Shown: positions 27,422 to 31,409 of the stretch, piece by piece
Layout of the letters: the number at the start of each line of letters is the position of its first letter
Position numbering within the stretch: position 1 is the stretch's first letter
Assembly (NCBI RefSeq): GCF_050920415.1
Contig: NZ_CP169309.1
DNA length: 64,000 nucleotides
Reading direction: 5' to 3' (one strand)
Source of the DNA: Escherichia coli
GTDB taxonomy: Bacteria; Pseudomonadota; Gammaproteobacteria; Enterobacterales; Enterobacteriaceae
Position numbers and translations under genes: made by a program
Notes under the pieces: model-generated
The model's input: the letters and a program-made list of their open reading frames with translations, nothing else
Told to the model about the DNA's origin: nothing
Databases searched by the model: none

Positions 27422-27536
27422 CCTGTTTTTCGCAACTGTTATGCAAAATCGTGGCAAATCTGTTACTTTCCCTCTACTATTCCCACGTTAAAATAGGGTG
27501 TTCCCTGGAAAGTTGCAGATACCACGAAGGCAAACG

Positions 27537-28007
27537 ATGACCGAAATACAACGCCTGCTGACCGAAACGATTGAGTCTCTGAATACCCGCGAAAAACGCG
27601 ACAACAAACCCCGCTTTAGTATCAGTTTTATCCGTAAACATCCGGGGCTGTTTATCGGTATGTACGTTGCTTTTTTTGCCACCCTGGCGGTGATGTTACA
27701 GTCCGAAACGCTGTCAGGCTCTGTCTGGCTACTGGTTGTATTATTTATCCTGCTTAATGGTTTCTTCTTTTTCGATGTCTACCCACGCTACCGCTATGAA
27801 GATATCGACGTGCTGGATTTCCGCGTTTGCTATAACGGCGAATGGTACAACACGCGCTTTGTACCTGCCGCGCTGGTTGAAGCCATCTTGAACTCTCCGC
27901 GTGTCGCGGATGTTCATAAAGAACAACTGCAAAAAATGATCGTCCGTAAAGGTGAACTGTCTTTTTACGATATTTTTACCCTCGCTCGCGCCGAATCAAC
28001 ATCTTAA
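27537..28007 (+). CDS. ylaC: Inner membrane protein YlaC (156 aa)
   Basis: Start [15 protein letters not shown] chosen for K-12 length; two hydrophobic segments. Confidence 0.7.
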
Positions 28008-28164
28008 GTTAGGGTTACATACCAGGCGTAAAGCTCTGCGCCTGGTCAAATGACAACGTTCGTTTCCACCCATCTCTTCATGAAATCCCGGCTCTACCTC
28101 CTTATCTCCTGCCAGCCTTTTTCCACAATCAGATATACTTTCCCTACACTGTGTTAATAAGGAT

Positions 28165-29721
28165 ATGCTGGTGAGAACACGACATCTGGTCGGCCTTATT
28201 TCGGGAGTACTGATTCTTTCAGTATTGCTGCCTGTCGGCTTAAGCATCTGGCTGGCCCATCAGCAGGTAGAAACATCATTTATTGAAGAGCTGAATACGT
28301 ATTCCTCCCGCGTCGCTATTCGGGCCAATAAGGTGGCGACACAAGGGAAAGATGCGCTGCAAGAGCTGGAAAGGTGGCAAGGTGCGGCCTGTAGCGCAGC
28401 CCATCTCATGGAAATGCGTCGGGTATCTTACAGTTATCGCTATATTCAGGAAGTGGTTTATATCGATAACAACGTTCCCCAGTGTTCGTCTCTGGAGCAT
28501 GAAAGCCCGCCCGATACCTTCCCCGAGCCAGGTAAAATTTCGAAAGATGGTTATCGTGTCTGGTTAACATCGCATAACGATTTAGGCATTATCCGTTACA
28601 TGGTTGCCATGGGAACGGCACATTATGTCGTCATGATCGACCCCGCTTCCTTTATTGATATCATTCCCTATAGCTCATGGCAAATTGATGCCGCCATTAT
28701 TGGCAATGCCCATAACGTTGTGATAACCAGCAGTGATGAAATTGCTCAGGGAATTATTACCAGGCTACAAAAAACACCCGGTGAGCATATCGAAAATAAT
28801 GGAATTATTTACGATATCCAGCCCTTCCCGGAGATGAATATTTCGATCATCACCTGGGCTTCAACGAAAATGTTGCAGAAAGGCTGGCATCGGCAAGTCT
28901 TTATTTGGTTACCGCTCGGGTTGGTGATTGGCCTGCTGGCAGCGATGTTTGTGCTGCGTATTTTGCGCCGTATCCAGTCACCGCATCATCGGCTGCAGGA
29001 TGCTATCGAAAATCGTGATATTTGCGTGCACTATCAGCCGATTGTCTCCTTAGCCAATGGCAAAATTGTCGGTGCTGAGGCACTGGCGCGCTGGCCGCAG
29101 ACAGACGGTAGTTGGTTGTCACCAGATAGTTTTATTCCGCTGGCACAGCAAACGGGGCTTTCTGAGCCGTTGACGCTACTGATTATAAAAAGTGTCTTTG
29201 AAGATATGGGCGACTGGCTGCGTCAGCATCCGCAGCAGCATATTTCGATCAATCTTGAATCCACCGTACTCACCTCGGAAAAAATCCCGCAATTGCTGCG
29301 TGAAATGATCAATCACTATCAGGTTAATCCCAGACAGATCGCGCTTGAACTCACTGAACGCGAGTTTGCCGATCCGAAAACCAGCGCCCCGATAATTTCT
29401 CGCTACCGGGAGGCGGGCCATGAAATTTATCTCGATGATTTTGGTACGGGGTATTCAAGTTTAAGCTATTTACAGGATCTGGATGTCGACATTCTGAAGA
29501 TCGATAAATCTTTCGTTGATGCGCTGGAATATAAAAATGTCACGCCACATATCATCGAAATGGCAAAAACACTGAAACTGAAAATGGTAGCGGAGGGAAT
29601 CGAAACCAGTAAACAAGAAGAGTGGCTACGCCAGCATGGCGTGCACTACGGCCAGGGCTGGCTCTACAGCAAGGCATTACCGAAAGAGGATTTCTTACGC
29701 TGGGCCGAGCAACATTTGTGA
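28165..29721 (+). CDS. pdeB: c-di-GMP phosphodiesterase PdeB (YlaB): periplasmic sensor domain plus EAL domain
   Basis: N-terminal TM helix, second TM, C-terminal EAL domain (GAEALARW); start may instead be the GTG at 28171. Confidence 0.85.
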   Translation: MLVRTRHLVGLISGVLILSVLLPVGLSIWLAHQQVETSFIEELNTYSSRVAIRANKVATQGKDALQELERWQGAACSAAHLMEMRRVSYSYRYIQEVVYIDNNVPQCSSLEHESPPDTFPEPGKISKDGYRVWLTSHNDLGIIRYMVAMGTAHYVVMIDPASFIDIIPYSSWQIDAAIIGNAHNVVITSSDEIAQGIITRLQKTPGEHIENNGIIYDIQPFPEMNISIITWASTKMLQKGWHRQVFIWLPLGLVIGLLAAMFVLRILRRIQSPHHRLQDAIENRDICVHYQPIVSLANGKIVGAEALARWPQTDGSWLSPDSFIPLAQQTGLSEPLTLLIIKSVFEDMGDWLRQHPQQHISINLESTVLTSEKIPQLLREMINHYQVNPRQIALELTEREFADPKTSAPIISRYREAGHEIYLDDFGTGYSSLSYLQDLDVDILKIDKSFVDALEYKNVTPHIIEMAKTLKLKMVAEGIETSKQEEWLRQHGVHYGQGWLYSKALPKEDFLRWAEQHL

Positions 29722-29762: not shown

Positions 29763-30116
29763 CTATTCGTCGATGATTGACTCGAATCCGCCATAGATCA
29801 TTCGCTTGCCATCAAACGGCATGGACTCGCCGAACTCCTTCATCCGTGGGTCCGACATCATCTTTTGATTAGCAGCGTCGCGGACCTCTTTTGAAGGGTA
29901 TTCAATCCAGCTAAAGACAACCTCTTCATTCTCTTCCGCTTTCACCGCCATACGAAAATCGGTCACTTTGCCATCCGGTACATCGCTGGCCCAGCATTCG
30001 ACAATACGAAGCGCGCCAAACTCTTTAAACAATGGCGCGGCCTTAGCGGCCATTTCCCGATAGGCATCCTTTTTATCGGCAGGAACGGCAACCACAAAAC
30101 CATCAACATACTTCAT
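29763..30116 (-). CDS. ybaA: Conserved protein YbaA (117 aa)
   Basis: 117-aa ORF at the syntenic position next to ffs. Confidence 0.8.
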   Translation of the reverse strand: MKYVDGFVVAVPADKKDAYREMAAKAAPLFKEFGALRIVECWASDVPDGKVTDFRMAVKAEENEEVVFSWIEYPSKEVRDAANQKMMSDPRMKEFGESMPFDGKRMIYGGFESIIDE

Positions 30117-30226
30117 CAGACATACCTCCGAAGCGTACTGCGCAGCCAGACAATTCTTGCGACGTCAGTTGTGGTTAAAGTTTAGCCATGTTGGGATTTT
30201 TTGACGAAACGGGGGGAGGCAGAAAT

Positions 30227-30340
30227 GGGTGGGGGCCCTGCCAGCTACATCCCGGCACACGCGTCATCTGCCTTGGCTGCTTCCTTCCGGACCTGACCTG
30301 GTAAACAGAGTAGCGTTGCGGGAGAACCAACAGAGCCCCC
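30227..30340 (-). ncRNA. ffs: 4.5S RNA, the RNA component of the signal recognition particle (114 nt)
   Basis: Reverse complement reads GGGGGCUCUGUUGGUUCUCCCGCAACGC...GGCAGGGCCCCCACCC, matching the E. coli 4.5S RNA as recalled from memory, with the conserved GGAA tetraloop region. Confidence 0.93.
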
Positions 30341-30416
30341 ATTGAGAGCGTTGAGAACCAACGCGCAGGCGCATTATCACTGCTGCCCCGGCTAATTGCA
30401 ACCCATTGCGTGCCAG

Positions 30417-30806
30417 ATGCTGGTTTCTTGCGCAATGCGGCTTCACTCGGGCGTTTTTCCAGATTATGCTGAAAAATTACCTCAGGAAGAAAAGATGGAA
30501 AAAGAAGATTCATTTCCCCAACGCGTCTGGCAAATCGTAGCCGCTATTCCCGAAGGCTATGTCACCACTTACGGTGATGTGGCGAAACTGGCGGGATCGC
30601 CCCGCGCCGCGCGCCAGGTGGGTGGTGTGTTAAAGCGTCTCCCGGAAGGCAGCACCTTGCCCTGGCATCGGGTGGTTAATCGCCACGGCACCATTTCGCT
30701 AACCGGACCGGATTTACAGCGTCAGCGACAGGCATTACTGGCAGAAGGTGTGATGGTGTCAGGAAGAGGGCAAATCGACTTGCAGCGTTATCGCTGGAAC
30801 TACTAA
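30417..30806 (+). CDS. atl: Alkyltransferase-like protein Atl/YbaZ (129 aa)
   Basis: MGMT-like fold with PWHRV replacing the catalytic PCHRV (Cys to Trp). Confidence 0.85.
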   Translation: MLVSCAMRLHSGVFPDYAEKLPQEEKMEKEDSFPQRVWQIVAAIPEGYVTTYGDVAKLAGSPRAARQVGGVLKRLPEGSTLPWHRVVNRHGTISLTGPDLQRQRQALLAEGVMVSGRGQIDLQRYRWNY

Positions 30807-30836
30807 CCCTCTCCGGGCGGAGAGGGTTAACTTCGC

Positions 30837-31409
30837 TTAATATTGCGTAGGAGCCGGAACTGCCGAAGACGGATTCACCTGGGTTGGTGAGGTCGAAGGT
30901 ACGGTAGTCGTTGCGCCACCGCTGGCCTGAACCGGCACGGCGGTTTGCTGCACCGGCACTAATGTCAGGTCCGCTTTGGTCCCGCCCTGGTTGATCACCG
31001 GCTGAACGGTATCGGTGATAAATACCAGTTTGTCATTCACGGTAATCGCCGCACTCAACAGAATACGCGCGTTCGGCTGAACGTCTGCCGGGTTAAATGG
31101 CAGAACAAAGCTGAATGGTGACTGTTTACCTTCAGTACGCACCGCTTTTTGCGCCAGCACTTTTGACGGTGCATCGGCTAATGATGCGTCAGAAAGTGTC
31201 ACGGTCAGCACGGCATCAGGCGGCAGTGCGACTTTCTGACGGATCCAGACGGTACCGGAAACATTCGGTTGCTGGATAGCAGGTTGCTGTGTTGCTGAAA
31301 TAGACGTATTTGCAGCCGGTGCTGGCGTCTGAATATCCGCGCTTTTATCTGCGCAAGCCGCCAACGCAATCGCAACCGCTAAACCACTGGCCATGTGCAC
31401 GAGTTTCAT
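30837..31409 (-). CDS. ybaY: Lipoprotein YbaY (190 aa)
   Basis: Signal peptide with lipobox (LAACA); syntenic position. Confidence 0.8.
   Translation of the reverse strand: MKLVHMASGLAVAIALAACADKSADIQTPAPAANTSISATQQPAIQQPNVSGTVWIRQKVALPPDAVLTVTLSDASLADAPSKVLAQKAVRTEGKQSPFSFVLPFNPADVQPNARILLSAAITVNDKLVFITDTVQPVINQGGTKADLTLVPVQQTAVPVQASGGATTTVPSTSPTQVNPSSAVPAPTQY

Follow-up and report, generated by a model that had tools for sequence, protein, structure and literature searches.

Given the tryptophan found where O6-alkylguanine-DNA alkyltransferases (AGTs) carry their alkyl-acceptor cysteine, we questioned what kind of protein is encoded by a small open frame within the window (the whole 64,000-nt stretch of Escherichia coli DNA analysed here, contig NZ_CP169309.1), and where its coding sequence begins. 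The gene is atl (ybaZ) of E. coli, ordinary and already well studied. With high confidence we take its product to be an alkyltransferase-like (ATL) protein that has Trp for the acceptor Cys, flags O6-alkylguanine for nucleotide excision repair (NER) and is likely 103 residues long. None of the analyses run gave a result that contradicts the ATL assignment. The protein and its state are already known, and little is added here to published work; the by-product is an annotation note on the start codon, for which the K-12 record (129 aa) and PGAP (103 aa) differ and comparative evidence favours the short form.

Locus, allele and gene neighbourhood

The plus-strand frame ending at 30806 is a single open frame, and counting from the ATG at 30417 gives a stop-free translation of 129 aa with TAA at its end (ORF listing and translation; Table 1). 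The K-12 counterpart (ybaZ, b0454, NP_414988.1) is recorded as a 390-nt gene for a 'DNA base-flipping protein'. Both proteins (the K-12 one is also called eATL) read PWHRV and are identical at 128 of 129 residues (99%), the sole difference being Arg117 here against Ser117 in K-12; the 129-aa start of the reference is also probably too long. Because column 117 is freely variable (S, E, N, D, G, T or R among 22 aligned enterobacterial homologues), an effect of this replacement is unlikely. The gene order of the window, pdeB (+), ybaA (-), ffs (-), atl (+), ybaY (-) and tesB (+), is that of K-12 reversed (tesB-ybaY-atl-ffs-ybaA-pdeB), and with an identical neighbourhood and 99% identity to b0454, the earlier note was right to call this the known state of E. 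coli Atl.

The locus is part of the core E. coli chromosome. A match to positions 30100-30900, with the same neighbouring genes, was found in 5424 of 5426 complete E. coli genomes. Identity over these 801 bp was mostly 95-99%, reaching 100% in 2 genomes and at least 99% in only 18 of the 5424, and the window therefore represents a minority lineage or allele. In NZ_CP169399.1, which is 100% identical over the atl region, an IS2 transposase lies just upstream of pdeB (positions 1-460 of its locus); the window has ylaC-like and maa-like ORFs in that place (about 27500-28165), and so it is not simply that strain, or else the IS2 sits further upstream.

Table 1. Features of the atl region, in positions of the window.
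Feature	Position	Strand	Basis or remark
ffs, 4.5S signal-recognition-particle RNA	30227-30340	-	between ybaA and atl, transcribed away from atl
ffs promoter-like site, TTGCAA-17-GATAAT	30401..30373	-	sigma-70 scan
atl/ybaZ legacy ORF (K-12 b0454 annotation)	30417..30806	+	129 codons plus TAA; translation
Candidate atl promoter: TTCACT (30442-30447), 17-nt spacer, TATGCT (30465-30470)	30442..30470	+	by eye, conservation
Shine-Dalgarno-like AGGAAG	30484..30489	+	5 nt before ATG 30495
Probable real atl CDS, 103 aa from legacy Met27	30495..30806	+	PGAP, conservation, codon pattern
Tyr52 codon TAC, equivalent to human AGT Tyr114	30570..30572	+	invariant in 22 enterobacterial homologues
Arg66 codon CGC, equivalent to human AGT Arg128	30612..30614	+	invariant in 22 enterobacterial homologues
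Leu75 codon, at the AGT asparagine-hinge position (human AGT Asn137, Ogt Asn)	30639..30641	+	alignments
PWHRV motif (counterpart of AGT PCHRV), residues 82-86	30660..30674	+	translation, alignments
Pro82	30660-30662	+	
Trp83 codon TGG	30663-30665	+	alkyl-acceptor Cys column
His84	30666-30668	+	
Arg85	30669-30671	+	
Val86	30672-30674	+	
11-bp G+C-rich hairpin overlapping the atl stop codon	30804..30829	.	30-nt gap between convergent atl and ybaY

Tryptophan at the acceptor position

The earlier note had read PWHRV in place of PCHRV, and thus Trp in place of the active-site Cys, and both readings hold. The translated frame around the motif is STLPWHRVVNRHG, and W83 (W57 in the numbering of the 103-aa form) shares a column with Cys139 of Ogt and Cys321 of Ada in a MAFFT alignment (both sequences from the K-12 record). 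According to the HMMER alignments, the same residue lies opposite the Cys of Mycobacterium tuberculosis OGT (4bhc) and matches the Trp of Schizosaccharomyces pombe Atl1 (3gva, PWHRV) and of Vibrio parahaemolyticus Atl (vpAtl; 2kif, PWFRV). The frame is secure, and re-checking it gave no Cys at the motif; translation and four independent alignments ruled out both a misread frame and a hidden Cys. Cys was likewise found at the motif position in none of the 120 closest 90%-identity cluster representatives, which comprised 101 with PWHRV, nine with PWYRV, six with PWFRV, one with PWQRV, two with PRHRV and one garbled sequence.

Landmark residues were placed by alignment to a sequence that we take to be human AGT, compared with the literature at the landmarks alone and agreeing there (Y114, R128, N137, C145, H146 and E172). 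The equivalences are Y52 to Y114, R66 to R128, L75 to N137, W83 to C145, H84 to H146 and E110 to E172. W83, as well as Y52 and R66, is invariant across the 22 enterobacterial sequences. A published review (PMC10779285) describes the equivalent of Tyr114 as a tyrosine supporting base flipping, that of Arg128 as the arginine finger, situated in the helix-turn-helix, and ATLs as without the Asn hinge. In the alignments, the flipping residues and the His-Glu pair are kept and the nucleophile and Asn hinge are lost, a combination that fits the ATL description given there.

There is no cysteine in residues 27-129 (the 103-aa core), and the only one in the 129-aa ORF is C5, within a doubtful extension; suicide alkyl transfer through a thiol acceptor is therefore impossible. 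That Atl might be a true alkyltransferase using a different nucleophile would be in keeping with the retention of His84 and Glu110, whose counterparts in AGTs work with the catalytic Cys. We regard this as the most improbable of the readings considered, both from the Cys-free core and from the literature, in which E. coli ATL shows neither alkyltransferase nor glycosylase nor endonuclease activity and gains none when PWHRV is changed to PCHRV by a W-to-C substitution (PMC10779285).

Family and domain assignment

Profile searches placed residues 33-112 in Pfam PF01035 (6-O-methylguanine DNA methyltransferase, DNA-binding domain) at 94.3 bits (E 3.9e-27; gathering score 27), with the match spanning profile positions 2-81 of 81. 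A score of this size over nearly the whole profile puts both the reading frame and the homology beyond chance. PF01035 was the only Pfam match in Atl, a single-domain protein that lacks the N-terminal domain of AGTs. When compared with solved structures using HMMER, its best relatives were themselves ATLs (vpAtl 2kif, E 2e-28; S. pombe Atl1 3gva, E 2e-17), and structures of true AGTs trailed them (E about 1e-10). Neither the NCBIfam equivalog for Ogt (NF007626, 44.3 bits against a cut-off of 192) nor that for Ada (NF011964, 37.1 bits against 345) was reached, and the superfamily model TIGR00589 was the only NCBIfam pass (53.2 against 46.4). The RefSeq name 'MGMT family protein' is thus right only at the superfamily level.

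The sequence features by which an ATL is recognised were all found, namely AGT C-terminal homology, a replaced Cys, no N-terminal domain, a retained flipping apparatus and no Asn hinge. Those of an O6-alkylguanine-DNA alkyltransferase, a nucleophilic Cys in (I/V)PCHR(V/I) and an equivalog-level score to Ogt or Ada, were absent. Like Atl, vpAtl (2kif/2kim) and S. pombe Atl1 (3gva, 3gx4 and others) are single-domain proteins, of about 100-116 aa, and they align with residues 30-128, sharing the Trp at the Cys position, the Tyr and the Arg finger. They differ from it in detail: vpAtl reads PWFRV rather than PWHRV, Atl1 has short insertions near its C-terminus, and neither has anything matching the 26-residue legacy extension. 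Ogt, the C-terminal domain of Ada and human AGT/MGMT have the PF01035 fold in common with Atl (about 34% domain identity), together with the helix-turn-helix, the Tyr, the Arg finger, the motif His and the Glu. However, these true AGTs act as suicide methyl acceptors and carry the acceptor Cys (Ogt C139, Ada C321, human AGT C145), the Asn hinge and the N-terminal domain, whereas Atl has none of the three and has Trp at the acceptor position.

Selection and proposed role in repair

We assessed whether the core evolves as a coding sequence by comparing it between genera. Between E. coli and Salmonella, 57 of the 74 nucleotide differences in the 103-codon core lie at third codon positions, and synonymous and nonsynonymous codon changes over codons 27-129 number 49 and 13, respectively; the comparison with Citrobacter gave the same picture. 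This pattern marks atl as a functional gene that is being maintained, as opposed to a relic, and it excludes pseudogene status. The loss of the catalytic Cys, the Asn hinge and the N-terminal AGT domain would each be expected of a decaying, functionless remnant of an ogt-type gene, either a dead enzyme or a pseudogene. Such a reading is nonetheless very hard to sustain, being only marginally less improbable than an alternative nucleophile, since the 103-aa core is under strong purifying selection, atl is present in 5424 of 5426 E. coli genomes and across the Enterobacteriaceae with Trp, Tyr and Arg invariant, the family extends to Vibrio and fission yeast with lesion-bound structures solved, and phenotypes and UvrA binding have been published for E. 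coli ATL.

The functional statements that follow concern the published K-12 allele (S117), as given in reviews, and the window carries the R117 allele. E. coli ATL binds O6-alkylguanine with nanomolar to sub-nanomolar affinity, bulky lesions especially; it adopts a closed form and introduces a bend of about 45 degrees into the DNA (PMC10779285). It also binds UvrA (KD about 100 nM), co-translocates with it on DNA and contacts UvrC (PMC10779285). As cited in passages of PMC6449902 and PMC7835731, NER of O6-alkylguanine adducts is enhanced in vivo (Mazon 2009 and 2010) and Atl shields O6-alkylguanine from futile mismatch repair and its toxicity (Mazon 2010).

A stepwise mechanism can be proposed for an ATL protein of this kind. 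Atl is a stand-alone copy of the DNA-binding and base-flipping C-terminal domain of the AGTs and would contact DNA through its helix-turn-helix, with Arg66 and Tyr52 expected to flip O6-alkylguanine into the pocket. Because alkyl transfer is impossible, the protein would stay locked on the lesion, and the strongly bent complex could then be recognised by UvrA and UvrC, so that the lesion would pass to NER and be kept from futile mismatch repair. The window sequence is consistent with each step: it retains the DNA-binding and flipping residues, lacks the nucleophile and shows purifying selection on the gene. The earlier note had predicted binding to alkylated DNA without alkyl transfer, which the literature on the K-12 protein and the Cys-free core support, and a damage sensor recruiting NER, which the reviews support through the UvrA and UvrC contacts; to this the published role adds shielding from mismatch repair. 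By that literature, Atl here would bind O6-alkylguanine tightly and contact UvrA and UvrC, and it would not transfer the alkyl group, in line with its Cys-free core. Atl is a textbook example of a bacterial repair 'pseudo-enzyme' that links direct-reversal chemistry to NER, and the copy in the window is a normal one.

Position of the start codon

The earlier note had placed the gene at 30417-30806. Its open frame and its end stand, but its start is probably 78 nt too far upstream: we consider it likely that Atl begins at ATG 30495 and is 103 aa long. For a strain with 100% identical DNA in this region, PGAP calls a 312-nt CDS at 30495-30806 (WP_000409907.1, 'MGMT family protein'). All 22 aligned enterobacterial homologues keep Met27, which marks an abrupt onset of conservation, with variable, indel-bearing sequence upstream. 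At the place of the Shine-Dalgarno-like site, Salmonella, Citrobacter, Kluyvera and Enterobacter likewise carry an AGGA or GGAG.

The alternative is that the 129-residue product from ATG 30417 is real and that its 26-residue N-terminal tail is functional. The long frame is open from its ATG in E. coli, Salmonella and Citrobacter, its first residues (MLxSC) are fairly conserved, and the K-12 reference record retains the 129-aa start. However, codons 1-26 evolve like non-coding DNA. In the comparison of E. coli with Salmonella, their synonymous and nonsynonymous changes stand at 2:13, whereas the core has 49:13 (Fisher p = 4e-6), and the three codon positions carry 11, 6 and 7 differences, with no third-position bias. 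The same contrast between codons 1-26 and the core was obtained for E. coli and Citrobacter (Fisher p 1e-4). Besides the indels, Enterobacter has the frame closed by a stop 6 codons before its Met27 equivalent, and in Kluyvera the upstream ATG is missing. The DNA block 'ATGCTG..TTGCGCAA' persists in genomes with a closed frame, a sign of non-coding constraint beside the ffs promoter. Lengths among the 120 closest cluster representatives also favour the short form (103 aa in 47, 129 aa in 22), as does the PGAP call on identical DNA, and the solved ATLs have no such tail (vpAtl 2kif and Atl1 3gva start at query residues 30-31), the extension matching nothing.

Initiation of a long transcript would in turn be constrained by the neighbouring RNA gene. 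The -35 box of ffs (30401-30396) lies only 16 nt from ATG 30417, which leaves a long-form promoter no place except within ffs or the ffs promoter. In Klebsiella pneumoniae, a transcription start site (TSS) has been mapped 20 nt before the ATG of the 103-aa form and 8 nt after the same TATGCT as in the candidate atl promoter (PMC3415461 supplement). The E. coli TSS table of the same paper (PMC3415461) has no entry between ybaY and ffs, and the supplement of the tetracycline ribosome-profiling paper (PMC4909307) makes no mention of ybaZ or b0454. On balance the functional 129-residue product is unlikely, and a minor long isoform of Atl may exist beside the 103-aa protein. The choice of start affects residue numbering, recombinant constructs and the reading of the ffs-atl intergenic region.

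The ffs-atl intergenic region

On the minus strand, Rfam RF00169 (4.5S SRP RNA, ffs) matched 30236-30332 at 68 bits, and the -10 box GATAAT of its promoter-like site is located about 33 nt upstream of the mature 5' end. The 4.5S RNA precursor has a 5' leader that is trimmed by RNase P, and the spacing of the -10 box fits this. A sigma-70 scan at a threshold of 9 of 12 gave no promoter for atl and returned only the ffs promoter on the minus strand; the candidate atl promoter in Table 1 scores 8 of 12, under that threshold. Its TATGCT is kept in Citrobacter, Kluyvera and Klebsiella, in the last of which ffs is about 700 bp away. From this site, transcription of atl is predicted to start at about 30477-30479, inside the legacy extension and downstream of ATG 30417.

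A block of DNA at 30415-30436 (GATGCTGGTTTCTTGCGCAAT) contains the perfect palindrome TTGCGCAA (30428-30435). Conservation of the GATGCTGGTTTCTTGCGCAAT block as DNA extends over E. coli, Salmonella, Citrobacter, Enterobacter and Kluyvera, including cases in which the atl frame is closed. Klebsiella, whose ffs is not next to atl, lacks the block. We take it as a probable non-coding element of the divergent ffs/atl promoter region. More tentatively, the 78 nt of legacy codons 1-26 could be non-coding altogether and form a regulatory region shared by the divergent ffs and atl promoters, in which the TTGCGCAA palindrome block would possibly serve as a protein-binding or upstream-promoter element. 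If so, any 129-aa recombinant 'eATL' used in experiments would have carried a non-native N-terminal tail.

In Salmonella, a ChIP-seq peak for MarA, RamA and SoxS has been labelled 'ybaZ', with the motif GCCCTGCCAGCTACA (PMC10268841). The GCCCTGCCAGCTACA motif sits within ffs (positions 30233-30247 of the window) and not within atl, and high transcription of the locus may have given rise to an artefactual peak.

The 3' end of atl

Downstream, the hairpin that overlaps the atl stop codon has a folding energy of -19.7 kcal/mol (z = -4.5), and 0 of 200 shuffled sequences folded as well. It is probably a bidirectional terminator shared by atl and ybaY. The ybaY-ybaZ pair has been listed as a convergent transcriptional overlap, or 'excludon' (PMC12288877).
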